From the NCBI RefSeq assembly GCF_965228795.1, contig NZ_OZ245839.1:1311908-1375907 (forward strand): a DNA stretch of 64,000 bases, read 5' to 3'. Under the pieces are notes generated by a model. The model did not search any database, was not told the DNA's origin, and was given only the letters and a program-made list of their open reading frames with translations. The position numbers and the translations under genes are program-made. Of the stretch, positions 6,108 to 33,293 are shown piece by piece. Source of the DNA: Ekhidna sp. (lineage in GTDB: Bacteria > Bacteroidota > Bacteroidia > Cytophagales > Cyclobacteriaceae). Each line of letters begins with the position of its first letter. Positions within the stretch are counted from its first letter, which is position 1.

Positions 6108-7397
6108 ATGAGATACGATCCAATTGATAATCAGTTATTTATTCAGAATCGGGAAAAGCTTGCCAAACGAATGAAGCCCCAGTCAGTGGCAATTGTGCAT
6201 GCCAACGACATTATGCCTACGAACGCAGATGGCACCATGAAGTTTATGCAGAATAGCAATCTTTTTTGGCTTACAGGAGTAGATCAGGAGGAATCCATAG
6301 TGTTGATCGCACCTGATTTTCCGGATAAAAAAATGAGAGAGATTCTTTTCCTTAGGGAGACAAATGCAGAAATAGCAGTTTGGGAAGGACATAAGCTGAC
6401 AAAGGATGAGGGAACACAAACCTCCGGCATCAAAAACATCAAGTGGACTGCTGAATTTGAAAAGACTTTTTATACGATCCTTGCGGAGTGTGATCACATT
6501 TATCTGGACAGCAATGAACACATTCGGAATGCCAGCGAGGTAGAAACTCGCAATTCCAGATTCATCAAAGAATGCAAGGAAAAGTATCCATTGTATGAAT
6601 ATGAGCGATTATTTCCGATTCTTCAGGATTTAAGGTGTATCAAGTCTCAGTTTGAAATTGATGTGATGCAGCAAGCCTGCAACATCACTGAAAAAGGATT
6701 CCGAAGGATATTGGAGTTCGTTAAGCCTGGCGTGATGGAGTATGAGGTAGAGGCAGAATATCTACATGAATTTGTGAGAAATCGCTCAAAAGGGTTTGCT
6801 TATGAACCAATCATTGGCGGAGGTGGCAACTCGTGCGTGCTGCACTATCTTGATAATAATCAGGAGTTGAAAGATGGAGATATTTTGCTGATGGACGTTG
6901 GTGCTGAGTATGGAAATTATAATTCGGATATGACGCGGACTATTCCTGTCAATGGAAGATACACAGATCGTCAACGAAAAGTGTATGATGCGGTTTTGCG
7001 TGTGAAAAATGCAGCTACGGAATTATTGAAACCCGGAAATCGAATCCCTGAGTACCATGCTGAGGTAGGTAAGTTAATGGAGAAGGAATTGCTGGATTTA
7101 GGGTTGATTGACAAAACCGATATCAAAAATGAAAATCCGGACTGGCCTGCATACAAAAAGTACTTTATGCATGGCACCTCGCATCACATTGGTTTGGATG
7201 TGCACGATGTGGCATCTATTTATAAAGTGTTTGAGCCGGGCATGGTATTTACCGTCGAGCCGGGTATTTATATCCCGGAGGAAAACATTGGAGTACGAAT
7301 TGAGGATGATATTGTGATTACCGAGGATGGTCATCATAATTTGATGAGGAATATTCCAATTGAGGCGGAAGAGATTGAAGAGATAATGAATAAATAA
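6108..7397 (+). CDS. Xaa-Pro aminopeptidase (M24B)
   Basis: 'DVGAEYGNYNSDMTRT', 'HGTSHHIGLDVHD', 'TVEPGIY', 'GVRIEDD'. Confidence 0.95.
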   Translation: MRYDPIDNQLFIQNREKLAKRMKPQSVAIVHANDIMPTNADGTMKFMQNSNLFWLTGVDQEESIVLIAPDFPDKKMREILFLRETNAEIAVWEGHKLTKDEGTQTSGIKNIKWTAEFEKTFYTILAECDHIYLDSNEHIRNASEVETRNSRFIKECKEKYPLYEYERLFPILQDLRCIKSQFEIDVMQQACNITEKGFRRILEFVKPGVMEYEVEAEYLHEFVRNRSKGFAYEPIIGGGGNSCVLHYLDNNQELKDGDILLMDVGAEYGNYNSDMTRTIPVNGRYTDRQRKVYDAVLRVKNAATELLKPGNRIPEYHAEVGKLMEKELLDLGLIDKTDIKNENPDWPAYKKYFMHGTSHHIGLDVHDVASIYKVFEPGMVFTVEPGIYIPEENIGVRIEDDIVITEDGHHNLMRNIPIEAEEIEEIMNK

Positions 7398-7448
7398 CAG
7401 TCGACAGTCAATAGTTTTTTAGTCGACAGATATGTTATTTGATAATTG

Positions 7449-7493
7449 CCCCCTTGAGCCTGCCTGCGGCAAAGGCAGGGGGACTACAGGGGT
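7449..7493. repeat. REP-like cccc-ttga-gggg element interrupted by a 21-nt nested hairpin
   Basis: cccccttgag | cctgcct-gcggcaa-aggcagg (7459-7479) | gggactacaggggg. Confidence 0.65.
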
Positions 7494-7513
7494 GTATTGA
7501 AACATTAAAGCAT

Positions 7514-7933
7514 ATGACTAGTACAAAATTTGATTCAGATAAAGCGCCAGAGCCGGTAGGATTGTACCCTCATGCAAGGCAAGTAGGAAACTTACTGTTC
7601 TTATCCGGAGTGGGTCCAAGAGAAAGAGGAACCAAGAAAATCCCGGGTGTAGACCTGGATGAAAATGGAGAGATTGTCAACTATGATATTGCTGAGCAGT
7701 GCCATTCTGTTTTTAAGAACGTTCGACTGATTTTGGAAGCTTCTGGTGCGAGCTGGGAAGATCTGGTAGATGTGACGGTTTTTCTGACCAACATGAAAGA
7801 CGATTTCAAAACGTACAATAAGATTTACGCCGAGTATTTTAAAGATAATCAGCCGTGTAGAACAACTGTGGAGATCAGTTCGCTTCCCACACCTATTGCA
7901 ATTGAGTTAAAATGCATTGCCACAATTAAGTAA
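7514..7933 (+). CDS. RidA/YjgF family protein; ATG at 7514 preferred (the 7439 extension reads through a repeat)
   Basis: 'APEPVGLYPHARQVGNLLFLSG', 'F.NV..ILE..G', 'P.RTTVE...LP..IAIELKCIA'. Confidence 0.92.
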   Translation: MTSTKFDSDKAPEPVGLYPHARQVGNLLFLSGVGPRERGTKKIPGVDLDENGEIVNYDIAEQCHSVFKNVRLILEASGASWEDLVDVTVFLTNMKDDFKTYNKIYAEYFKDNQPCRTTVEISSLPTPIAIELKCIATIK

Positions 7934-7938
7934 ACATT

Positions 7939-8367
7939 ATGGAAGAAAATAATTTAGTTATAACCGGAGCTGATAAATCTAACCTCCTTGAAACCGCCAG
8001 ATGGGGCAAATTCCTTGGTATCGTTGGTTTTATTATGAGTGGACTTGTTCTATTAATTGCAATTTTTATGATCGTGGGCCTGTCATCCATGGACGGATCG
8101 TTTAATCCGGGCTGGGAGAGTGGTATAGGGTTTCTGTATTTTCCAGTAGCGTTGTTATACATTTTTCCGTCATTGTACCTCTATCGCTTTTCAGTTAGAC
8201 TGAATCAGGGCATTAAATCGATGGATCAGGAGAGCTGCTCGTCTGCCTATTTGAACCTAAAAAAGCTATTTGTCTTTATGGGTGTAATGACAATCATTGT
8301 ATTAGCACTTTATGCCCTGGCCATATTGTTTGTAATTATGGGAGGTGTAATGGGTGGAATGCTCTAA
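7939..8367 (+). CDS. DUF5362-like membrane protein
   Basis: 'L.ETARWGKFLGIVGF', 'LYIFPSLYLYRFS', 'LK.LF.FMG'. Confidence 0.8.
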   Translation: MEENNLVITGADKSNLLETARWGKFLGIVGFIMSGLVLLIAIFMIVGLSSMDGSFNPGWESGIGFLYFPVALLYIFPSLYLYRFSVRLNQGIKSMDQESCSSAYLNLKKLFVFMGVMTIIVLALYALAILFVIMGGVMGGML

Positions 8368-9095
8368 TCAGTGTTTTGCTCTATCCATCTAAACGCTTCC
8401 TTAAGTAGCTCAACATAATTACATGCTTCATAATGCGATAGTGTCTCGCTGGAAATAAATACTACTTGCTCGCTATTTTGTTGATTTCTCTCAAGAATTG
8501 CTCTAGCCCGACTGTAGCTAAATAGTTGATCTTTGACTCCATGAATAACATAAGTGGGAACTTTATAGCTTGCAGGTTTATAATATCCGGCCATTGCAAT
8601 GGCCCCATCAATCATGTCATGATGTTTAGAAGCAAAGTGAACGGCTCCAGTCGCTCCATCACTATATCCAGCCATGATCACCTTATTTACAGGCCAGTAT
8701 TCCATGATTAATTCAATCAACCGTACAAGTTGTTTTTCTTTTGGGTTTTCCCACCAAAATTGATTTTGAGATAGTGGTGAGATGATGATGTATTGTGAAG
8801 TATCAATACCGGGAATCATGAGGCAGTTTATGAATTCCTTATTTTCATTACCTGACACACCCCAATGTAGTGCAACTACCATGGGCACCTTTTCAGCTCT
8901 TACTTTACTAGGTACAGAAAGTTTCATTGGCCACTTTTCACCACTGGTAAGCGAAACAGAAATCGTTTTGTAACCAGGGTCAAGCACAATTTTTTTGATA
9001 CTTTTCCTGGTGGGTTGTCCGTTAAACTCTTGAGCACAGAGCAAGGCACTGGTCAATAAAAAGACCGTCATCATGGCGAATTGTTTAATCTGCAT
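8364..9095 (-). CDS. Secreted alpha/beta hydrolase
   Basis: Signal peptide; 'VVALH', nucleophile elbow GYSDG, 'YVIHGVKD', late His. Confidence 0.8.
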   Translation of the reverse strand: MQIKQFAMMTVFLLTSALLCAQEFNGQPTRKSIKKIVLDPGYKTISVSLTSGEKWPMKLSVPSKVRAEKVPMVVALHWGVSGNENKEFINCLMIPGIDTSQYIIISPLSQNQFWWENPKEKQLVRLIELIMEYWPVNKVIMAGYSDGATGAVHFASKHHDMIDGAIAMAGYYKPASYKVPTYVIHGVKDQLFSYSRARAILERNQQNSEQVVFISSETLSHYEACNYVELLKEAFRWIEQNTD

Positions 9096-9852: not shown

Positions 9853-9953
9853 TTTCATTTTACTTTTTAAATAGTGATCAGTTGATTGTGTGAATTAGTA
9901 CGCAAGTCTTTTATTTGTTGACACGAATCCACTAATTAACTAATCACGAAAGT

Positions 9954-23103: not shown

Positions 23104-24870
23104 ATGAGGATTGTCTTTCAATTAATTTTTGCTGTTAATCTCTTCTCAACCTATGCGCAGGATCCAATAGAAGAACATCTTAGCGTAATTAGGCATGCTG
23201 AAAACCCAAAGGATATTTATTACGCTTATTCAGAGATTGTAGAGTATTATTCACTTTTCTCTATTGATTCTGCAATTTTTTACTCGCAACAATTCGTTGA
23301 TTACACAGACTCTCAATCGGATGTCAATAACCAGATAATCAGTAGGTGTCTTTTGTCATCTTTTTATGAGGATGCTAGCATGTACAACATTGCATTAGAG
23401 GTTAGTCTAGAAGCAATGGATCTGATGAATGCCAGGAAAAGCAGTGTTAGCCCAAAGACAGAGGGTGCTTTATACACAGAGCTAGGTTGGATTTACGATA
23501 ATCTAGATGATCATGAGAAATCACTTAACTATTTTAGGAATTCATTAAAGATTGGAAGTATTAACAATGATTCTTCCTTGATGGGATATGGGAATTACTG
23601 CATTGGTAGTTTCTATCTTTTTTCTGAGAATCCATTATTCTACGATTCTGCCATCACTTATTTAGAAACTGCAAATCGCCTAATCCAAGAAAGTGCAGCA
23701 TCTTTTGATAGCATTATAAATATTGAAACTGAATTAGCCTATGCGTATGCATATCTTGGTCTGCTTGATCAAGCAAGGTCAGCAATCCAAACCCTTGATC
23801 AGAAGTTTGAAAAAATGGGGCCTTACCATCAAGCGTACACAGATGGTGCAAGGTATCTGGTTTTTAAGAGTGAAGGTAAATATCAACAGGCCCTTGCTGG
23901 ATTTAATCGTCTTTTAGATTTCACCATTGAGATGGGTATTGGTACAACAGAGGAGTCCGTCAATCTGACAAAAGAAATTTTGGAGTTAGCTAAAATGATG
24001 AATGATTCAGAGCTAGCTCTTGCCACTTATGAAGAGCTCAGAAAAAGAGAGAATGAATGGCTTGAAATTCAAAAGGTAAACCGAACCAATGAGCTGCAAA
24101 TTCAATATGAAACTGCACAAAAGGAGCAAGAATTAATATATCAAGCCAATCAGATTAAGCAGAAAAATGTAATTATTTACATTACCAGTATCTCATCCCT
24201 ACTCATTCTTCTCGCATTATCAGTTACGTTGATTCTATTTAAAAAAATAAAGCGTAAAAACCAGCAAATTGAAACGCTGATGCGTGAGTTGCACCATCGA
24301 GTAAAAAACAATCTTCAGGTGATATCAAGTTTATTGGGATTACAATCATCTAAGCTTAAAGATGAGTCTGCTCAGAAAGCGGTAGAGGAGGGAAAGGAGC
24401 GCATAAGAGCCATGTCTTTAATTCACCAGAAGTTGTACCAGCAGAGTGATGTATCCTCAGTAAATCTGAAAGAGTACCTGGAAACACTCGTTAAGGAGAT
24501 TGCAGACTCTTATGGATATGGTCGAAAGGTAGGATTACAACTTGAAATCCCTGAAATTCCCATGGATGTAGATACGACCATGCCCATTGGGTTAATCGTA
24601 AATGAGCTAGTCAGCAATTCGTTTAAATATGCCTATCAGGATATCGATCAACCATTTTTAAAACTATCAGTTATTGAACAACAATCGAACAGCTTTCAGC
24701 TTTCAATAAAAGACAATGGTAAAGGCCTTCCTTCAAGTTTCAATTTTGAAAAGGCTACATCCTTTGGATTGAAGCTAGTGAGGTTGCTTGTTAAGCAACT
24801 GGGAGCTAAATTAGAAATCAATCAAACAGAAGGTCTGGAATACAAAATCGAATTTCAACCGGCTCGGTAA
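23104..24870 (+). CDS. TPR-domain sensor histidine kinase (HisKA_2 type)
   Basis: Signal/TM, TPR-like periplasmic region, TM helix, 'ELHHRVKNNLQ', 'NELVSNSFKY', 'DNGKG', 'SFGLKLV'. Confidence 0.93.
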   Translation: MRIVFQLIFAVNLFSTYAQDPIEEHLSVIRHAENPKDIYYAYSEIVEYYSLFSIDSAIFYSQQFVDYTDSQSDVNNQIISRCLLSSFYEDASMYNIALEVSLEAMDLMNARKSSVSPKTEGALYTELGWIYDNLDDHEKSLNYFRNSLKIGSINNDSSLMGYGNYCIGSFYLFSENPLFYDSAITYLETANRLIQESAASFDSIINIETELAYAYAYLGLLDQARSAIQTLDQKFEKMGPYHQAYTDGARYLVFKSEGKYQQALAGFNRLLDFTIEMGIGTTEESVNLTKEILELAKMMNDSELALATYEELRKRENEWLEIQKVNRTNELQIQYETAQKEQELIYQANQIKQKNVIIYITSISSLLILLALSVTLILFKKIKRKNQQIETLMRELHHRVKNNLQVISSLLGLQSSKLKDESAQKAVEEGKERIRAMSLIHQKLYQQSDVSSVNLKEYLETLVKEIADSYGYGRKVGLQLEIPEIPMDVDTTMPIGLIVNELVSNSFKYAYQDIDQPFLKLSVIEQQSNSFQLSIKDNGKGLPSSFNFEKATSFGLKLVRLLVKQLGAKLEINQTEGLEYKIEFQPAR

Positions 24871-25605
24871 ATGTCAGATCAAAAAATAAACGTCCTCATA
24901 GTAGAAGATGAATGGATTACCTCGGAAGAGATCAAGGAGGTACTTGAGGAAAAACAAATCAATGTCACTGGTCAGGTTGATAATGCGGAAGAGGCACTTG
25001 AGATTGTTCAAAATGAAACAATAGATGTAGCTATTCTGGATATCAATATCAAAGGGGATAACGATGGAATCTGGCTGGCTAGTCAAATAAATAAGATTCG
25101 TACAACTGCCATCATTTTTCTGACTGCCTTTGAGGACGATGAGTATGTGGAGCGTGCTAAAAAAGTAGTTCCGGCAGCTTATATGGTCAAGCCATTTCAG
25201 GCAAAGAACCTCATCATTTCCGTAGAAATGGCCTTCAGCAGTTTGTTACAAGATCGAGAAAGCGAAGAACAACTTCCATCTGAGTTTATTCTGGCGGATC
25301 GCATATTCATAAAAGAAAATCAACTTTTAAAGAAAATCCTCCTTGAAGACATCCTGTATGTAGAAGCAGTAGGTAGCTATTCGAAAATTCACACAAAGAA
25401 ATCAAATCATACACTTGCAATCAATCTTAAAACCTTCAGTAGTAAGTTGAGTCATGACTCTTTTGTAAGGGTTCATCGATCGTATTTGGTCAATTCCACA
25501 CAAATTGATGCCATCAATGGCAACATCATCTATCTTCAAGAAGCTTCCATTCCAATTGGAGCCGCACAGCGCTCAGAAGTGCTCAAACGCTTACGCGTAA
25601 TTTAA
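24871..25605 (+). CDS. Response regulator, REC plus LytTR DNA-binding domain
   Basis: 'LIVEDE', 'ILDI', 'KPF'; 'DILYVEA.GSY', 'FVRVHRSYLVN'. Confidence 0.95.
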   Translation: MSDQKINVLIVEDEWITSEEIKEVLEEKQINVTGQVDNAEEALEIVQNETIDVAILDINIKGDNDGIWLASQINKIRTTAIIFLTAFEDDEYVERAKKVVPAAYMVKPFQAKNLIISVEMAFSSLLQDRESEEQLPSEFILADRIFIKENQLLKKILLEDILYVEAVGSYSKIHTKKSNHTLAINLKTFSSKLSHDSFVRVHRSYLVNSTQIDAINGNIIYLQEASIPIGAAQRSEVLKRLRVI

Positions 25606-25693
25606 AATATACCCCCAATTAGGTATTGATAATGGAGGCTTTTGTTTCCTAATTTAGGATTAAACAAAGAATCAAACTCCTTTTCAATGGATA

Positions 25694-25723
25694 AGTCACA
25701 AAAAAATATCACTAGCTCACAAA
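25694..25723 (+). promoter_or_regulatory. Putative LytTR binding site (direct repeat with 21-nt period)
   Basis: agtcacaaa (25694-25702) and gctcacaaa (25715-25723), ~85 nt upstream of the fibre gene. Confidence 0.45.
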
Positions 25724-25807
25724 GTATTTAACCATACTCGTGAAGATTGTTTTTTTGTCATCACTCAATGAAGGAATTTGAAATGATAAACTAAACTACC
25801 AAAAAAC

Positions 25808-28800
25808 ATGAAAACACTTCGCCTCCTATTTTTACTATGCTTTGTCACCATTGGAGTTTTTGCTCAAAATACCGGTGATGGTGGGAAAATGACTTTTCAA
25901 GGGTCACTATTCCAAAATGGTGAGCCAGTGAATGGCACAGTTGAATTAACCTTTAGTATACCATTACCCAATGGGGAGTGGACGGAAACCATTAGCGGTG
26001 TTTCTGTAGCTAACGGGCTTTATTCGGTAGTCTTGGGAAATACTAATCCTATACCGAACGACTTATTTATGGATGCTGCTCAGCGTTCGGTCACTGTAAC
26101 AGTTGATGGGACTTCACTCGGACAGGTAAATATCTATCCTTCGTTCGTTCCCGGGATAATAAAAGTAGATTCACTTCTATCTAATCGACTGATTATAGAA
26201 AATGATCAGGGAAACTATGTAGAGGTAACGAATAACTTTTATAGAATTAGAAACAGATCTGAAGGAGCCTCAAGTGTATATCTAACAAATGGAGGAACAT
26301 CCAGGCTTCAGCTTGCAGATTTTGACTCATTGGGAGCAACCAGAAGTTTAAGCTTCTTCACAGCCAGACCGGATGGTACTAGTAATATCACTATGGAGCG
26401 CTTCAGTGATGCTGGTGATCGAAACCTTTTACTAGAACTTTACTCCACAGATCGATTCATTGACGGAACGGTTTTAAGAGATGGATATGCTCGAGGAGGA
26501 GTTGATTTTTATAATAACCGAGGTGAACAAACAAGCTGGTTTACTTCCATGCCTGGTGACGAGAATGGAGGAGATCCGGATGGATGGTCTGCCGGAATGG
26601 GGCTGTACGGTACGAACAGCATCAATTTCATCATGGAGGGAAAGAAATGGGAGAATAACGACTTAGGATCTTTTCAGATGTATGGTGAGCACGGCAATGG
26701 CGATGGTTGGTACCACAGAAATATAGCTATGAATGTCAACTCTGACGGAACCAATAACTGGGGTCAGATTGAACTATTTAATTCAGTAGAAGGAGCAGGT
26801 GGAGAGGTCCAAACAGTAAATATTGACGGTCAGTCTGGCAACATGTATATCGCAGGTGATTTGACTGTAGACGGAGTGATCAATAGCAGTATTAACGTTG
26901 ATTTCAATTCAAGCTTATATACTCTTCAAAATCCGAATGATGGACAGCAAATTGGTGATATCATCGCCAGAGATAATGGGACTCAATTGAATCTAATGGG
27001 CTTCATAGACGGTCTTCAAAATGGTGGAGGCGTGTCGATGGGTACTAAGTGGTTCAACTTCGATCCTGCTCAAACACAACTAGGCTATTTCCATCTTAGG
27101 GGAACAGTAAATCCAGCGAATTATTTTGATGCCAATATGAAGGTCGCCATTGAGGCCACAAGAAGAGGTGATGGCGAGGAAGCAGCTAACATTTTAATGT
27201 ATGGCAATATTCTAGATGGAGATTCAAAAGCGCTTCCTGTGATGAAAATGGAAACAGTACCAAACGGTGATTACTCGGCATGGGGTGCTCAAATATCCAT
27301 GTCAAGTGTTGATGGAGCTGGAGAAAGCCAAACTGTGAATTTTAACAGTATTGATGGTTCTGGCTACTTTTCAGGAGACCTTGTTGTAGATGGAAACTTG
27401 AGTGCAAATGTTACTCCAATTGATGGGAATGAGTTCAATGTAAATTATGGAGATGGAACCAATTTCGTGAAAGCTGACCCAAACACCAGTTCCGGTCGAT
27501 TTACTGTCTTTAGTCCAGCAGGTACTCAAGCAGCCCGAATATTCAGCTCAGGAGGTAATTTCGGACGATTCAGATTGTATTCTCCAAATGGCCAAAATGA
27601 TACCCGATTAGAGTTAGGAGTTGATTCAAATGAAGGTGGATATGCACAGTTTTTGGATGCGGGTTTAAGCACCACAATAAACCTAACCGGAGCAAATGGC
27701 TCAGGCTACTTCGCTGGCGACCTAACAGTTGATGGAAACCTAAATGCTAATATCAATCCAAATTTTGACGGTATATCAGTCAACTCGGCAGGCTTGAACA
27801 TTTTCGGAGAATTCAGTCGAATGAATATCTGGAATAGTTCTGACAGTAGCTATCAAGTAGTGGAGGCCTTTGAAGAAAATAATTATGGTATTATTGATCT
27901 AAGAGATGAGAACGGAAATGTTTCAATCTCCCTACAAGGGTCGACCGGTGCTGCTTCTTATATTGCTGGTGATCTTACTGTGGATGGAAACCTAAATGCC
28001 AATATCAATCCAAATTTTGACGGTACATCAGTCAACTCTGCTGGTTTAAATATCTTCGGTGATTTTAGTCGAATGAATATCTGGAATAGTACGGATAGTA
28101 GCTATCAGGTAGTAGAAGCTTTTGAGGAAAATGATTATGGTATCGTCGATTTGAGAGATGAAGCAGGTGATGTTTCTATATCCCTTCAAGGATCAACAGG
28201 AGCTGCTTCTAATTTTACTGGAGACTTAAATGTTAACGGGAATCTTTACGGAAATAACACAAATGCAAATCAATTCTCTTTGAGCAATGGTAGAGCTAAC
28301 ATCACATCCGGAAATCAAGGAAATGGTGATTTCGGACAATTGAATTTGAATTCTACAGTTGGTGATGGTAGCAATCGAATAAGCATGGGATTTGCTGATC
28401 TTAATGAAACAGCTGGTTTTTTCAGCTTATGGAATTCAAATAATGAACTAGCTCTGATGAATGTTGTGCTTGATGGAGGAGGAAATTATGGTGCTCTATC
28501 TCTTGGAGGTCCTGGTTCTGTTACATTAAGTGGCCAGGGAAATATTGACGCCTCTGGTTATATCAGTGCTAGCGACCTATACTTTAGTGGTGCAAGTCCA
28601 GTTTCATTCAATAATGACGTAGGTATCATTTCAACTAATGAAGCGAGACTCAATACTAACGTTTTAGTTGGTGATCAAGGGGATAATGCAGTAGACATCA
28701 ATAATAATATGATCTCAATTACTGCAGGAGGCACTGGTAGTGATGATGGTACAAATACTATAAGCATCGACGGTGCAACAAGAGTCATTGATATCAATAG

Positions 28801-29473
28801 CTCAGATGCAACTTACAATGCAGTATCGATTCAGGATGCTTCCAGTGGAGGAGAAATCTTAGTAAGTGACAATACAGGTCAATTATGGGCTCATTTTCAA
28901 AGTGCTAATAGACAGTTAGTTGTATCGAATGATGGTGGAACTAATGGAGCATTTGTAACAGCTACAGGCATGTTTGGTGGTGACGGAACAGGCTCTTATA
29001 ACATTGGGTATGATGGTAATGCAACTTTCAGTGGAACTGTAACGGCAACATCCTTCCCTACTTCATCTGACAAGCGGTTCAAGGATAATATTGAGCCGCT
29101 AACGAATTCCTTATCAAATACTTTAAAAATAAGTGGTTATACATATAAGTGGAATGATGTTGCAAAAGAAGTGAAAGGAATTAGCGATGAAAAAGAGCAA
29201 ATTGGAGTTCTAGCACAAGAATTGGAAAAGGTTTATCCTCAATTAGTAAAAACTGATGCTGAAGGTTACAAGTCTGTGAATTATCCTGCTCTTACAACCG
29301 TACTCATCGAAGCAATCAAAGAACTGAATGCCGAAGTGAAAACACTGAAAGCAGAGAACGAGGAATTGAAATCAAATGCCTTGAAAACAGCCGAGCTTTC
29401 CAAACGCATCGAAACCATTGAAAAGCTCCTGGAGCTAAAGGCCGAATCTTCCACCTCAAGTGCTAAAAATTAA
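25808..29473 (+). CDS. Secreted tail-fibre-like protein with C-terminal S74 intramolecular chaperone domain
   Basis: Sec signal (VFA-Q); G/N/D-rich beta body with GDLxVxG motifs; 'SSDKRFKDNI', 'IGVLAQELEKVYP.LV', 'KSVNY..L..VLIEAIKEL' then a coiled coil. Confidence 0.9.
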   Translation: MKTLRLLFLLCFVTIGVFAQNTGDGGKMTFQGSLFQNGEPVNGTVELTFSIPLPNGEWTETISGVSVANGLYSVVLGNTNPIPNDLFMDAAQRSVTVTVDGTSLGQVNIYPSFVPGIIKVDSLLSNRLIIENDQGNYVEVTNNFYRIRNRSEGASSVYLTNGGTSRLQLADFDSLGATRSLSFFTARPDGTSNITMERFSDAGDRNLLLELYSTDRFIDGTVLRDGYARGGVDFYNNRGEQTSWFTSMPGDENGGDPDGWSAGMGLYGTNSINFIMEGKKWENNDLGSFQMYGEHGNGDGWYHRNIAMNVNSDGTNNWGQIELFNSVEGAGGEVQTVNIDGQSGNMYIAGDLTVDGVINSSINVDFNSSLYTLQNPNDGQQIGDIIARDNGTQLNLMGFIDGLQNGGGVSMGTKWFNFDPAQTQLGYFHLRGTVNPANYFDANMKVAIEATRRGDGEEAANILMYGNILDGDSKALPVMKMETVPNGDYSAWGAQISMSSVDGAGESQTVNFNSIDGSGYFSGDLVVDGNLSANVTPIDGNEFNVNYGDGTNFVKADPNTSSGRFTVFSPAGTQAARIFSSGGNFGRFRLYSPNGQNDTRLELGVDSNEGGYAQFLDAGLSTTINLTGANGSGYFAGDLTVDGNLNANINPNFDGISVNSAGLNIFGEFSRMNIWNSSDSSYQVVEAFEENNYGIIDLRDENGNVSISLQGSTGAASYIAGDLTVDGNLNANINPNFDGTSVNSAGLNIFGDFSRMNIWNSTDSSYQVVEAFEENDYGIVDLRDEAGDVSISLQGSTGAASNFTGDLNVNGNLYGNNTNANQFSLSNGRANITSGNQGNGDFGQLNLNSTVGDGSNRISMGFADLNETAGFFSLWNSNNELALMNVVLDGGGNYGALSLGGPGSVTLSGQGNIDASGYISASDLYFSGASPVSFNNDVGIISTNEARLNTNVLVGDQGDNAVDINNNMISITAGGTGSDDGTNTISIDGATRVIDINSSDATYNAVSIQDASSGGEILVSDNTGQLWAHFQSANRQLVVSNDGGTNGAFVTATGMFGGDGTGSYNIGYDGNATFSGTVTATSFPTSSDKRFKDNIEPLTNSLSNTLKISGYTYKWNDVAKEVKGISDEKEQIGVLAQELEKVYPQLVKTDAEGYKSVNYPALTTVLIEAIKELNAEVKTLKAENEELKSNALKTAELSKRIETIEKLLELKAESSTSSAKN
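27713..28216 (+). repeat. Tandem 252-nt (84-aa) intragenic duplication
   Basis: 27713-27964 versus 27965-28216; 75/84 aa identical; about 30 synonymous codon differences. Confidence 0.92.
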
Positions 29474-29484
29474 TATTCAAGATC

Positions 29485-32400
29485 ATGAAAACGATCATGA
29501 ATAAACTCATAGCAACGTGCATTCTGAGTCTCCTTGTAGGAGCACTTTGTGCACAGGATACATTAAGCAGATCCAATGTCTCCAACGGAGGTGCATGGCT
29601 CACTAAGAGTAGCTACACCCTCTTTGGAACCTTCGGTCAGCCTGGTGTTGCGACCAATATTACATCAGAAGATGGTGTGTTATCCGGCTCTGTTGGATTC
29701 ATCGGTCCTGTGAATAATATCGGACAAAACAACCCGCCAGTAGCTTCTACAACTTCGTTAACCGTTTTTGTAGAAGATAGTATAATTGAACTTTCAGGAT
29801 TTGATCCCGATGGGGATGAGATATTCTTTGAAATCGTTGCAGAACCTCAATTTGGCACCCTTACGCAGGTACAGGGAGGTCAGTTTGAGTTTCTACCAAA
29901 TGCGGGACTCAATCCTGGTCAATTATACACCGATGAATTAACGTTCAGGGTTAATGATGGAAGTCTAAATTCAGAAGATGCGGTCTTTAACTTCCAGTTT
30001 ATCATGGAAGATGCTCCTCATGAGATTACCGGAGTAACATTTGATGGAACCAACATGTCCCTTTCATGGGAAGATGTGGTGCCAAATGATTCGTATGCAG
30101 TTGAATTAGACTATTACGATCTATCTGATGCAACAAACCCGGGCTTCAAATTTTTGATTAATCAATCATTTAATGCAGCAGATCTAATACCAGAGAATGG
30201 ACTATACAGTGTTTCTACTGCGGTTTCTGCCACTGAGCACCCTTACGTCTTTGATGGTGATCAGGTGTTTATAACGGCATCAGTCACTACCCCAAATGGA
30301 GTAGGAGCTTTTGAGGCAATTGTTTTGGACAATACGACAGGTGCGAGAACGACAGCATCTTCAGATGGTGAGTTCTTTGCGTTTGGGAGTAGTCAAACCG
30401 TACGTGAAAATGGCAAGGTAGAACTTAGTTTCTATAGTGTAGAACTCAGTGATTTTGATGCGGCTACCACCATTATAGAACTACTTGACGAAGGATCGAA
30501 AGGAAACATTTCCGATCTCACTGTAAAGGAGTCTACGGATGTGCTTAAAGAGTGGTCGGTTACTTATGAGTCAACACAACAAGTGGGAGGTAAGGATTCG
30601 ATAGAGTTTAGGGTGTTTAATCAGGATCGTCAGTTATTTGATACAGCTTACGTAAGGATTGATATCATCGATGTAAATGATCCTCCAAAGTTGGCAAGAA
30701 TCGCTAATCAGGTGACAGAGGAAGATGTGCCTTTACAGGTAAACATTACTCCAACCGATCCGGACAATGAAGTTTCAGTAATCGTAGAATCCAACGAAGC
30801 AACCTTAGCTCCGGCTACTTATGAAAACGGTGTAATCACTGTCTCTCCACAAAATAATTTCAGCGGCAGAGTTTCTGTCAACGTCATTGTGGAAGAGGTA
30901 GATACCGATGAAAACTACGTGGCTTATCGAAAATTTGACGTTGAAGTATTGGATGTGGATGATAGTCCTGTTGTAAATGCCATTCCCAATACAACGATTG
31001 ATGAGGATAATACTTTAACCTTTATTGCCTCGGCTACAGACGTTGATGCTACCTTGGCAGTATTCACTTACAGTGCTGAGGTAAATGATCCATCTGCTAT
31101 TGATGTAGAGGTTGATGGGAGTACCATCCAGCTGATACCTAAGCCTAACGTAAATGGTACATACACCGTGAGTGTATTTGCTGACGATGGACTTGGTAAA
31201 CCTACGTCAGTATCGGAAGCTGAGGTCTTCGAATTGGTGATCAATCCAATCAACGATGAACCTGAGATTTTGAAGTCATTCTCAACTCAGCAAATCATTA
31301 CCGGATTGCCAGACTACACCATCAATTTAGGCGCTTATTTTACGGATGTTGAAAATGGTTCCGACCTTACCTATACGTTTGCCGGCAATTCAGAAATTGG
31401 ATTAAGCATCTCAAATACAATCCTTACAGTATCACCTTCAGAATCATTTAATTCAATTGAGGAAGTTACCGTGACAGCTTCAGATGGGGAAAATGAGGTC
31501 AGTCAGACGGTATCGTTTGTGTACATTCAATCAGATCCTAACGTAGTGATTGTGAATGCAGTAGCGGATTTTACCTTGGAAGAAGATTTTGGCACATCAA
31601 CGTTAGATGTATCCAATGTCTTTGCAAATACCAATGATCCCAATGCTGTATTTGAATTCAACTTAACTGGAGGTGGCTTTACCTCTGCTTCCATTAACGA
31701 AGAAGGTTTAATCACATTCGAATCAGATGAAAACTTCAATGGAACAGAGACCTTTTATCTTTTTGGTTCTGTAGATGGACAGGCCAATTATACATCATTC
31801 ACACTGGAAGTGACCCCTGTTAATGATCCGCCTGTTGTTTCTCAGGTTTCTGCTAAGGAAATGATAGAGGATCAAATACTTTCAGGGGTATTTCTATCAG
31901 TTGCAGATGTGGATAATTCCTTATCTGAATTGACCATAACAGCTAGCTCTTCTGATACTAACATCATTGATAATGTTGGCATCACCAATAATATTTTAAG
32001 TAGTGGCTTTTCTTTCAGTTTTACACCTATAGCTAATGCAAATGGAAGTACGACCATTGAAATAAGTATCAGCGATGGTGGGGATCCGGAAGTGGTTTCC
32101 TTTGATTTGAACGTGCTGCCGGTAAATGATGCTCCATTCATCAAGTCAGCATCCATAGGACCTGCTACTGAGGATGTTAGCTATTCTTTGAACATGACCG
32201 AATTATTTGGAGATGTAGATGGCGATGCACTTAGTTTTTCATCAACTGAAAAGCCCGAATGGTTAACTCAGACAGGAAATATATTGTCTGGGACTCCAGC
32301 GAATAGTGATGTAGGTGTTGAGCCGCTCAAGATACGTGTGGATGATTCCAAAGGAGGCACAGTGGTTCAGATGTACGACATAGAAGTGCTGAATGTCAAT

Positions 32401-33198
32401 GATGCTCCAACATTAGTAAGTGAAATAGCTCCATTAGAGTTATTGGAGGATTTTGGAACTTCCACCTTGCTGTTAGATAATAAGTTTGAAGATATCGATG
32501 GCGATGTATTGATATATACTGCGTCTTCTGATAATGAAGCGGTTGTAACTGTTTCAGTTTCAGGAAGTGAATTGATTCTAACCGAGGTTTCAAATGGTTC
32601 ATCAACCATTATAGTTTCAGCTGATGATGGGAATGGAGGAAATGTGGAAACCTCATTTGCTGTGACTGTAAATAATGTAAATGATGCACCGGTGGCGGTA
32701 TCTGGAATTGTGGATCAAGAGATCAAGAAGGGTTTTAGTAATTCTACCATTGATTTAGCCAATGCTTTTGAGGATGAGGATGGCGATCAGATACGTTTGT
32801 CTGCCGCTTCATCAAATGTGGAAGTAGTAGCCGTAACAGTTAGCGGAACCACGCTTTCCATCCTGGAAAGAGGCGAAGGAGTCGCTACAATCACTGTTAC
32901 AGGTTCCGATGGAAATGGCGGAGAGGCTTCATTCGAATTTGATTTCACTGTAATTCCTTTGGGCGTCAATGCTGTTGAGGACTATCACATTTATCCTAAT
33001 CCTGTTTCTAAGCAGTTGTACATCAAAGGGACTTTTAGCGAAGTAGGATGGAGAATGATTGATACTTCCGGAAGGATTATTAAATCGGATCGTTTATCTA
33101 ATGGAGAAGCGATAGATGTTTCAAATATGAATACAGGAATTTATTACTTAAGGATTGATGGGACGAATCAAACCCTGAAGGTGATCATTCGCAGATAA
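29485..33198 (+). CDS. Large T9SS-secreted protein with ~10 cadherin-like/tandem-95 repeats and a type A CTD
   Basis: Signal peptide; recurring 'VND.P...' and 'D.DGD.L' motifs; C-terminal 'IYPNPVSKQLYI...G.Y.L......KVII'. Confidence 0.92.
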   Translation: MKTIMNKLIATCILSLLVGALCAQDTLSRSNVSNGGAWLTKSSYTLFGTFGQPGVATNITSEDGVLSGSVGFIGPVNNIGQNNPPVASTTSLTVFVEDSIIELSGFDPDGDEIFFEIVAEPQFGTLTQVQGGQFEFLPNAGLNPGQLYTDELTFRVNDGSLNSEDAVFNFQFIMEDAPHEITGVTFDGTNMSLSWEDVVPNDSYAVELDYYDLSDATNPGFKFLINQSFNAADLIPENGLYSVSTAVSATEHPYVFDGDQVFITASVTTPNGVGAFEAIVLDNTTGARTTASSDGEFFAFGSSQTVRENGKVELSFYSVELSDFDAATTIIELLDEGSKGNISDLTVKESTDVLKEWSVTYESTQQVGGKDSIEFRVFNQDRQLFDTAYVRIDIIDVNDPPKLARIANQVTEEDVPLQVNITPTDPDNEVSVIVESNEATLAPATYENGVITVSPQNNFSGRVSVNVIVEEVDTDENYVAYRKFDVEVLDVDDSPVVNAIPNTTIDEDNTLTFIASATDVDATLAVFTYSAEVNDPSAIDVEVDGSTIQLIPKPNVNGTYTVSVFADDGLGKPTSVSEAEVFELVINPINDEPEILKSFSTQQIITGLPDYTINLGAYFTDVENGSDLTYTFAGNSEIGLSISNTILTVSPSESFNSIEEVTVTASDGENEVSQTVSFVYIQSDPNVVIVNAVADFTLEEDFGTSTLDVSNVFANTNDPNAVFEFNLTGGGFTSASINEEGLITFESDENFNGTETFYLFGSVDGQANYTSFTLEVTPVNDPPVVSQVSAKEMIEDQILSGVFLSVADVDNSLSELTITASSSDTNIIDNVGITNNILSSGFSFSFTPIANANGSTTIEISISDGGDPEVVSFDLNVLPVNDAPFIKSASIGPATEDVSYSLNMTELFGDVDGDALSFSSTEKPEWLTQTGNILSGTPANSDVGVEPLKIRVDDSKGGTVVQMYDIEVLNVNDAPTLVSEIAPLELLEDFGTSTLLLDNKFEDIDGDVLIYTASSDNEAVVTVSVSGSELILTEVSNGSSTIIVSADDGNGGNVETSFAVTVNNVNDAPVAVSGIVDQEIKKGFSNSTIDLANAFEDEDGDQIRLSAASSNVEVVAVTVSGTTLSILERGEGVATITVTGSDGNGGEASFEFDFTVIPLGVNAVEDYHIYPNPVSKQLYIKGTFSEVGWRMIDTSGRIIKSDRLSNGEAIDVSNMNTGIYYLRIDGTNQTLKVIIRR

Positions 33199-33221
33199 TT
33201 AAGATAAGCAATACTAAGGTG

Positions 33222-33261
33222 GGGCTGCATTGATAAATAGTTTATTGTGCGGCCCTTTTTT
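33222..33261 (+). terminator. Intrinsic terminator of the fibre/T9SS operon
   Basis: gggctgca/tgcggccc stem followed by T6. Confidence 0.7.
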
Positions 33262-33293
33262 ATTAGAAAATACTATTAATCCGCCAGGCTGAA

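Follow-up and report, generated by a model that had tools for sequence, protein, structure and literature searches.

A MAT-type S74 fibre gene coupled to a motif-bearing, type IX-sorted partner gene in an Ekhidna genome and in other Bacteroidota

The MAT (mosaic adhesive trimer) fibres of Bdellovibrio bacteriovorus, described in 2024 as prey-recognition adhesins, are a set of 21 proteins, 13 of which end in a Peptidase_S74 (S74) domain with the SDxxxK motif and eight in other tips (Caulton et al. 2024, PMC10769870). All of them carry a conserved beta-rich N-terminal domain (N-domain) of ~130 aa right after the signal peptide and are exposed at the cell surface, their C-termini pointing outward; the N-domain was proposed to bind a surface element that was not identified, and both the surface anchor and the crossing of the outer membrane were left open (PMC10769870). 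Here we analyse a locus in a 64,000-nt stretch of the genome of Ekhidna sp. (contig NZ_OZ245839.1; Bacteroidota, Cyclobacteriaceae), hereafter the window, in which a gene for a fibre of this kind, P0003, is followed on the same strand by P0004, a gene for a type IX secretion system (T9SS) cargo protein that begins with a recurrent N-terminal motif. S74 chaperones, T9SS cargo, LytTR regulatory systems and MAT fibres are each known. The coupling of a MAT-type fibre to a motif-bearing sorted partner was not found in the searchable literature, which likewise held no report on S74 together with T9SS, on T9SS piggyback or hitchhiking export, or on tail-fibre-domain proteins with T9SS, and the supplements of the MAT paper do not mention Bacteroidota (PMC10769870).

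The features of the two genes are as follows, with coordinates given as positions in the window.

25808-29473, + strand: P0003, MAT-like fibre of 1221 aa; from the N-terminus, signal peptide, beta-sandwich, beta-rich body of modular build, then S74 domain with a helical tail
25808-25864, + strand: fibre signal peptide, residues 1-19, putative cleavage after VFA, without a lipobox (sequence reading)
25889-26134, + strand: conserved fibre N-domain, residues ~28-109 (~85 residues), a six-strand beta-sandwich as predicted by AlphaFold2 (AF2)
27716-28219, + strand: two tandem, near-identical 84-residue body modules, residues 637-720 and 721-804, each beginning with a GDLTVDG hinge
29066-29251, + strand: Peptidase_S74 intramolecular chaperone domain, residues 1087-1148 (Pfam; alignment to 6f45)
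29252-29470, + strand: helical coiled-coil-like tail, residues 1149-1221, kept in all close homologues (sequence)
29485-33198, + strand: P0004, partner of 1237 aa; signal peptide (1-23), N-terminal motif, ~9-10 repeats of the Big_9/cadherin-like kind and, last, a type-A T9SS C-terminal sorting domain
29581-29703, + strand: partner N-terminal motif, residues 33-73 (SNGGAWLTKSSYTLFGTFGQPGVATNITSEDGVLSGSVGFI), matched by a model trained on other genomes
29722-32988, + strand: stalk of Big_9, Cadherin_4/5 and tandem-95 repeats (domain search)
32989-33189, + strand: type-A T9SS C-terminal sorting domain, residues 1169-1235 (Por_Secre_tail/TIGR04183)

The sole Pfam match in the fibre is Peptidase_S74 (residues 1087-1148, E 3e-16, 59.8 bits against a cut-off of 22), and its catalytic SDxxxK motif, S1087-D-K-R-F-K1092, aligns with the corresponding motif in the phage long-tail-fibre chain 6f45. 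If the protein is cut at S1087, the helical tail would leave together with the chaperone. No T9SS C-terminal sorting domain (CTD), lipobox or barrel was recognised in the fibre, either by a Pfam/TIGRFAM-type domain search or in the sequence itself; the signal peptides of fibre and partner were read by eye. A first-pass annotation of this DNA had described a Sec-signal S74 fibre lacking all three of these elements, and the S74 match, the VFA-ending signal peptide and the helical tail bear that description out. The N-domain is modelled by AF2 with a predicted local distance difference test (pLDDT) score > 90 from a 42-sequence alignment, and a structure search with it returned nothing at E < 0.001 in the Protein Data Bank (PDB) or a viral library. 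We regard it as a candidate docking or anchoring domain. The rest of the protein is punctuated by five GDLxVxG hinges, at residues 350, 523, 637, 721 and 805.

Similarity to phage proteins (PHROG, PDB) lies mainly in the C-terminal third of the fibre (~400 residues) and is strongest at residues ~1000-1190, the C-terminal body and S74 domain matching several tail-fibre PHROGs and chain 6f45. In this, P0003 resembles S74 phage fibres and tailspikes such as the K1F endosialidase, the T5 L-shaped fibre and 6f45: the S74 domain with SDxxxK is C-terminal and followed by helices, and the beta-rich body before it matches several tail-fibre PHROGs. It differs from them in having a Sec signal peptide and an N-terminus that is not a virion-attachment domain, and in its setting among housekeeping genes of the chromosome, where it forms a pair with a T9SS cargo gene. 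A sequence search of the P0003 body against solved structures matched only two phage fibre chains and gave no match to the solved MAT structures. The earlier suggestion of a domesticated tail fibre therefore fits the C-terminal part, with its PHROG and 6f45 matches, but not the N-domain, which has no significant structural relative among phage or PDB entries.

In overall architecture, the fibre stands closest to the MATs. Both families share a signal peptide, a conserved beta-rich N-domain without a structural relative in the PDB and a long variable body, and both have S74 and non-S74 members and several paralogues per genome. In BLASTP, the P0003 N-domain matched a Bdellovibrionales fibre at E 1e-4, and an N-domain model built almost wholly from Bacteroidota sequences found 11 long ORFs in that Bdellovibrionales genome and had matches in 22 of 35 Bdellovibrionaceae genomes. 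Because the N-domain, the S74/SDxxxK layout and the Bdellovibrionaceae matches fit the MAT description, we file P0003, as judged from its architecture and N-domain match, as a MAT-type fibre, an assignment made to the family as described and not to any of the 21 HD100 proteins individually by name. The notion that the system is wholly undescribed has to be given up, since the architecture of the fibre is the published MAT architecture (PMC10769870) and its N-domain recurs in those 22 Bdellovibrionaceae genomes. Two differences from the MATs are nevertheless plain: the host here is a member of the Bacteroidota and not a predator, and the fibre gene is coupled to a T9SS-sorted motif partner, for which no counterpart has been described for MATs.

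The partner has a Sec-type signal peptide (residues 1-23) without a lipobox, and its CTD (residues 1169-1236) scores above the cut-off with both PF18962 (47.0 bits, cut-off 27) and TIGR04183 (41.2 bits, cut-off 23). Between the motif and the CTD, the repeats are matched by Big_9 in eight stretches, Cadherin_5 in three and tandem-95 in seven, and they are joined by seven (V/I)(N/D)D(A/P/E/S)P linkers similar to cadherin calcium-binding linkers; on the strength of this linker motif, the stalk may bind calcium. A T9SS cargo with about ten cadherin-like repeats, encoded 11 nt downstream of the fibre, had been noted in the first pass, and the length of 1237 aa, the CTD scores and the 11-nt gap agree with it. 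P0004 is like the type-A cargo of the T9SS (gingipains; PorU/PorV) in its signal peptide and Por_Secre_tail domain, and the genome encodes SprA (SprA_N, E 1e-150) together with two full-length PorU sortases (> 1200 bits each). Related partners elsewhere have the type-B CTD and the PorP/SprF gene typical of SprB-type cargo. Known T9SS cargo of either type is exported in cis, whereas here we propose that the cargo carries or anchors a second protein that has no CTD.

What P0004 has in common with the partners of other fibres is a single stretch, the motif after its signal peptide, which aligns with 28 other partners. The 29 aligned N-termini give a consensus of ~45 residues, x-S-x-G-G-x5-G-x-Y-x3-G-x2-G-Q-x10-15-G-F, past which the partners diverge into cadherin/Big_9, LRR, Fn3-like or LamG domains or run directly into the CTD. 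The sorting signal varies as well: it may be a type-A CTD, a type-B CTD with a PorP/SprF gene adjacent (positions 6487-8437 of survey locus L098 and 5324-6744 of L107, where that gene follows) or an IPTL-CTERM-like tail (L099 2234-2920). A motif model trained exclusively on partners from other genomes, with the genome of the window excluded, gave one match among the 6,959 ORFs of this genome, namely P0004 residues 33-73 (E 2.5e-5), and the motif was not found among the 52 CTD proteins of the genome other than the partners. In the survey of 80 loci described below, every significant match begins at residue 23-60, straight after the signal peptide, and all 30 significant matches among the 2,176 ORFs adjoin an S74 fibre gene (in locus L058, within ~1.2 kb); four of them lie outside the training set of the model.

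Within the genome, each of the four fibre genes lies beside a T9SS-sorted gene. Three S74 genes are present, and each precedes a same-strand CTD gene, at an 11-nt gap, a 14-nt gap or a 4-nt overlap; one partner has 392 aa, the cadherin-type one 1237 aa and the LamG/DUF285 one 2630 aa. Given 56 CTD matches among ~3,700 genes, the latter number an estimate, the chance of finding three of three S74 genes so paired is ~3e-6. A fourth pair lies outside the window (G000:C1 126571-131150) and has the reverse order, a 163-aa partner being followed after 11 nt by a 1358-aa fibre (127074-131150) that has the same N-domain, decapeptide repeats and an Lcl_C tip, without S74. This N-domain was not recovered with a model made from the three S74 fibres alone and is significant with a wider model (E 1.7e-27). 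The 163-aa partner consists of a signal peptide, the N-terminal motif and a type-A CTD only; motif membership of this and the other two partners outside the window was assigned by architecture and visual alignment.

The same arrangement recurs in other genomes. A first survey, with one genome per species, scanned for the S74 C-terminal alignment and yielded 80 loci, mostly from Bacteroidota. Its genes are simple ORF calls, some with wrong starts (e.g., in L021), and the N-domain, S74-tail, CTD and motif models were home-made. The closest homologues of the fibre have a ~1240-aa cadherin/CTD gene 9-14 nt downstream: in L005/L006 synteny is the same and the pair is preceded by kinase and regulator genes, and in L004 it stands without them in a different chromosomal place. 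Of the 44 S74 fibres that are complete and have the N-domain, 28 have a CTD gene next to them on the same strand, where ~6% would be expected (P = 4e-23, against a background of 23 CTD genes among 718 other gene-like ORFs), and 26 have an adjacent motif-bearing gene; for secreted S74 proteins negative for the N-domain, an adjacent CTD gene was seen in 6 of 36. Fibre and partner genes are a median of 15.5 nt apart and in several cases overlap, and of 39 partner tails checked with Pfam, 37 proved to be Por_Secre_tail. A second sample of 20 loci from 20 genera was chosen by the N-domain alone, the first having been selected via S74, and there 17-18 of the 20 loci have an adjacent motif-bearing sorted partner, mostly of 160-250 aa. 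The pair in the window conforms to the pattern, with an N-domain fibre and, 11 nt away on the same strand, a gene that has both the motif (E 2.5e-5) and the CTD. Co-occurrence of fibre and sorted partner genes across genomes, the check that the first-pass annotation had asked for, is thus found in both samples. The N-domain model itself matches in 103 of 301 Bacteroidota genomes, which represent 65 of the 144 genera and have between 1 and 13 copies; the genome of the window has four.

Taken together, these comparisons strongly support, at the level of sequence, the view that the fibre gene and the T9SS cargo gene are a conserved functional pair, and they suggest a role for the partner in carrying the fibre to the cell surface or anchoring it there. 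The two proteins also vary together. Fibres with an xFQGxL-type N-domain have large downstream partners, and those with an FNYQAVxRD-type N-domain have ~170-aa partners that are mostly upstream (this genome, Balneolaceae and a Bacteroidales metagenome-assembled genome). Judging from ORFs in Thiotrichaceae and Pirellulales, the motif family reaches past the Bacteroidota. Large proteins that have the motif but no T9SS signal are encoded close to N-domain S74 fibres in two Thiotrichaceae loci, Thioploca included (L058 8099-15390 and L080 4986-11211), that of L058 having LamG, DUF11 and VWA domains; in a Pirellulales contig (L062 3410-3817), a small ORF has the motif-like stretch GGGG..GG.Y.L.GTIGQP...GGYW.

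A different reading of the pairing is that fibre and partner are co-regulated but physically independent adhesins, with the motif serving some other purpose, for example as a pro-peptide or a T9SS-related handling signal. T9SS cargo genes are indeed numerous in this genome (56) and often lie near LytTR regulators, and the motif is predicted to be disordered. We nevertheless consider this reading improbable: within the loci examined, the motif occurs only beside N-domain fibres, the other 52 CTD proteins of the genome do not have it, the minimal partners contain no adhesin body at all, and the genes are separated by very short gaps or overlap.

Two further arrangements seen around these pairs are recorded here. 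In L014 (50-14163) and L013, from Roseivirgaceae and Cyclobacteriaceae, fibre-partner pairs lie on both sides of the kinase-regulator pair, with a second N-domain fibre and CTD gene upstream. The third S74 fibre of the genome (710 aa; L090, G000:C1 3216729-3230111) is followed by its 2630-aa LamG/DUF285/DUF5018 CTD partner and, downstream, by caspase-like Peptidase_C14 and DUF4384 proteins, with a Kre9-like membrane protein upstream; in L007, which has a homologous fibre, a giant LamG protein, Peptidase_C14, a sigma-70 factor and DUF4384 are also present, and the association of LamG, Peptidase_C14 and DUF4384 may be a recurrent one.

In the window, the pair is preceded by two regulatory genes and closed by a hairpin.

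23104-24870, + strand: sensor histidine kinase (Pfam-type domains), with orthologues in the same position in L014, L046 and L005/L006
24871-25605, + strand: response regulator with receiver and LytTR domains (Response_reg 4e-21, LytTR 1e-17)
25696-25724, + strand: candidate LytTR operator, a direct repeat of TCACAAAA (25696-25703) and TCACAAAG (25717-25724)
33215-33263, + strand: intrinsic-terminator-like hairpin, then UUUUUUAUU (folding)

The kinase opens with a signal-like segment, after which come an extracytoplasmic TPR region at residues ~22-340 and one transmembrane segment at ~355-378, followed by HisKA_2 (395-470, E 5e-28) and HATPase_c (495-584). The start codon of the regulator comes immediately after the kinase stop codon, and a gap of 202 nt separates the regulator from the fibre gene, on account of which two transcription units (kinase-regulator and fibre-partner) are probably likelier than one operon. 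At the 3' end, a consensus terminator scan listed nothing after the partner gene; the hairpin emerged instead from folding of 33199-33265, which gave a 20-bp stem at -20 kcal/mol (z = -2.75, with 0 of 200 shuffles as stable) and a U-run after it. The ORF calls place four co-oriented + strand ORFs at exactly the coordinates first noted. Gene order, common orientation and the closing terminator-like hairpin are confirmed; a single operon is the less probable layout, given the 202-nt gap.

LytTR regulators such as AgrA, ComE, AlgR and BtsR usually bind paired direct repeats ~21 bp apart. The regulator here shares with these systems a receiver and LytTR domain, and a candidate site, an imperfect direct repeat with 21-nt periodicity, lies just upstream of the putative target promoter; the system differs in its kinase, which is of the HisKA_2/HWE type with an extracytoplasmic TPR sensor and not a peptide receptor of the AgrC/ComD type. 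The two copies of the repeat are 21 nt apart from start to start, and the second ends 83 nt before the fibre start codon. The repeat TCACAAA(G/A)nA, with a periodicity of 20-21 nt, stands upstream of the fibre gene in the window, L005/L006, L013, L014 and L046 (three times in the last), at an identical distance from the start codon in the window, L013 and L014; it was not found upstream of the fibre gene in the other ~80 loci scanned. From this pattern, the adjacent two-component system likely controls the fibre-partner promoter via the TCACAAAG repeat as a putative operator. Next to the fourth pair of the genome (locus L088, G000:C1 123814-131150), genes for a 614-aa TPR kinase and a 241-aa LytTR regulator run divergently, so that a TPR-kinase/LytTR pair lies next to two of the four fibre pairs (p ~0.01). 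Beyond the close orthologues in L005/L006, L014 and L046 and this fourth pair, kinase and LytTR neighbours occur at about chance level. We considered the two-component system as a general part of the cassette and ruled this out, since it is present only with close orthologues and one other pair. The first-pass claim that the fibre is induced by its own two-component system consequently stands as a plausible regulator with a conserved repeat, but not as a component of the module at large.

Related arrangements occur elsewhere. One further genome-wide occurrence of the operator-like repeat, CACAAA-N15-CACAAAG, lies ~300 nt upstream of another T9SS cargo gene of the genome (1488 aa; G000:C1 2138016-2146542), downstream of which a 714-aa kinase and a LytTR regulator are encoded, and several of the 31 LytTR genes are within a few kb of CTD genes, which suggests that local LytTR control of T9SS cargo may be a general habit in this genome. 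Upstream of the L004 pair, which has no two-component system, a different 21-nt-spaced repeat, CATTTTTATCGA, occurs twice (9875-9915), which hints at another regulator with the same binding geometry.

The ten genes flanking the locus belong to housekeeping or metabolic Pfam families (saccharopine dehydrogenase, SDR, outer-membrane protein barrel, UbiE, GTPase, DUF5606, thioesterase, FBPase and amino-acid kinase), and a PHROG search of these ten genes gave zero matches. These results bear on the possibility that the locus is a prophage or tailocin remnant, in which the fibre would be a leftover tail fibre gene without a cellular role. The C-terminal ~400 residues, with their tail-fibre PHROG and 6f45 matches, are what such a remnant would offer. 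Against this, no other phage genes were found within 10 kb on either side by PHROG and Pfam searches, the flanks are syntenic with L005/L006, G+C content is uniform throughout the region, the locus is conserved in several families, and the fibre begins with a Sec signal peptide and an N-domain that is not of phage type. We give this possibility next to no credence and reject it on the flanking genes, which have no PHROG matches and fall in housekeeping families; the absence of neighbouring phage genes had been remarked on in the first pass as well.

The reading we favour, with somewhat more confidence than doubt, is a two-gene surface-fibre module under a dedicated two-component system, in which the partner supplies a sorting signal in trans. 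It builds on what the sequences show directly: the architecture of each protein, the recurrent pairing of the genes, the motif common to the partners, a T9SS in the genome and an operator-like repeat kept among orthologues. Its parts, namely trimerisation, self-cleavage, contact between N-domain and motif, co-export with the partner, surface anchoring and regulation, are all ones that we infer. By analogy with phage fibres and Bdellovibrio MATs, the S74 chaperone would drive trimerisation of the fibre and afterwards cleave itself off at Ser1087. Both the S74 domain, which removes itself, and a CTD have to be C-terminal, so the fibre cannot carry a CTD of its own past maturation. The T9SS sorting signal would instead be supplied by the partner, and we propose that the fibre N-domain docks on the N-terminal peptide of ~45 residues in this partner. 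The CTD of the partner would take it through SprA, and PorU would remove the CTD and fix the partner to the cell surface. In type-A cargo, the C-terminus is cell-proximal after removal of the CTD. The N-terminal peptide of the partner would therefore be distal, which matches a fibre that is attached by its N-domain and points its C-terminal tip outward. In most genomes, the partner is just this peptide and a sorting signal; here, with about ten cadherin-like repeats between peptide and CTD, a long stalk would hold the fibre at its end. Activation of the fibre-partner promoter would probably fall to the TPR sensor kinase and LytTR regulator. Functionally, the arrangement recalls trimeric autotransporters and two-partner secretion, which likewise pair long trimeric or repetitive surface fibres with a separate export or anchor domain or protein, but the locus has neither a YadA-type anchor nor a TpsB/Omp85 partner, and its proteins are unrelated in sequence to either system.

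Carriage of the fibre through SprA is the boldest part of this reading. It is attractive because the fibre has no export signal of its own and SprA is reported to pass folded proteins (review, PMC9251779). In its full form, the proposal is that the partner peptide is a surface receptor for MAT-type N-domains and, in Bacteroidota, also a trans-acting T9SS adaptor that carries a folded, CTD-less trimer through SprA; we put this forward tentatively, as possible and rather short of probable. A 362-aa "tail fiber domain-containing protein" was detected in the vesicle proteome of Tannerella forsythia and classed as outer membrane (PMC10682907), which may be a hint from experiment that proteins of this sort get to the outer membrane of an organism with a T9SS.

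The alternative closest to this is docking after export, in which the T9SS anchors the partner, and the fibre crosses the outer membrane by another route and binds the peptide at the surface. The Thiotrichaceae motif partners beside N-domain fibres (L058, L080) have no T9SS signal, MATs are displayed on the surface of Bdellovibrio, which is not known to have a T9SS, and T9SS carriage of a CTD-less protein in trans was not found in the searchable literature. We hold docking after export to be unlikely but not remote, in view of three points: the fibre has no recognisable signal for outer-membrane export (lipobox, barrel or CTD), the one constant of the Bacteroidota partners besides the motif is a surface-sorting signal, with many of them comprising nothing more, and SprA is reported to transport folded proteins (PMC9251779).

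Several observations weigh against export and anchoring by the partner, or weaken the evidence for them, and belong together here. A T9SS-independent export route for MAT-type fibres may exist, because Bdellovibrio displays MATs and is not known to have a T9SS, and because no motif partner was found in the nine Bdellovibrionaceae loci in which one was looked for. Sixteen of the 44 N-domain fibres are without an adjacent CTD gene, mostly in non-Bacteroidota genomes and in tandem fibre arrays. The co-variation of N-domain and motif subtypes could be explained by their joint inheritance as one cassette. Applied to the other three partners of this genome, the motif model stayed below significance, and leave-one-out models made from the four partners of the genome did not recover the motif that had been left out. 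In an AF2 model of the first 168 mature residues of the partner, the motif has a pLDDT of 42-62 and the following domain > 90; such low values would fit folding on binding and equally well a flexible leader. As for regulation, the loose form of the repeat occurs five times genome-wide where 1.65 are expected, for which reason its conservation and not its occurrence bears the operator argument, and adjacency to LytTR genes is weak evidence because these genes are common (31 in the genome).

In Bdellovibrionaceae, the MAT-like genes are directly preceded by a small ORF of 113-243 aa (L115 9823-10515, L116 9140-9871, L117 9180-9803, L119 6173-6514, L120 19443-19988 and L122 5796-6299). Several of these have a lipobox-like Cys, and three have a common ACFxVNV-like stretch; on sequence features such as these, the small upstream protein is a candidate MAT anchor.

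Our results highlight that a fibre of the MAT kind is common in Bacteroidota, with about one-third of the sampled genomes having it, and that it stands almost always beside a protein made of the peptide and a sorting signal. That protein is a concrete candidate for the anchor or exporter of MAT-type fibres. To this the window adds two variants, a long-stalk partner with cadherin-like repeats and a dedicated sensor kinase/LytTR pair with a candidate operator, the latter providing a handle for inducing the system. If the proposal is true, carriage of a CTD-less trimer in trans would widen the known role of the T9SS and be the first case of piggyback export, and it would account for the use of a C-terminal sorting pathway by a protein whose own C-terminus is lost through self-cleavage. 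The peptide, placed on any sorting signal and on a stalk of any length, would then amount to a general plug-and-socket system for mounting fibres.

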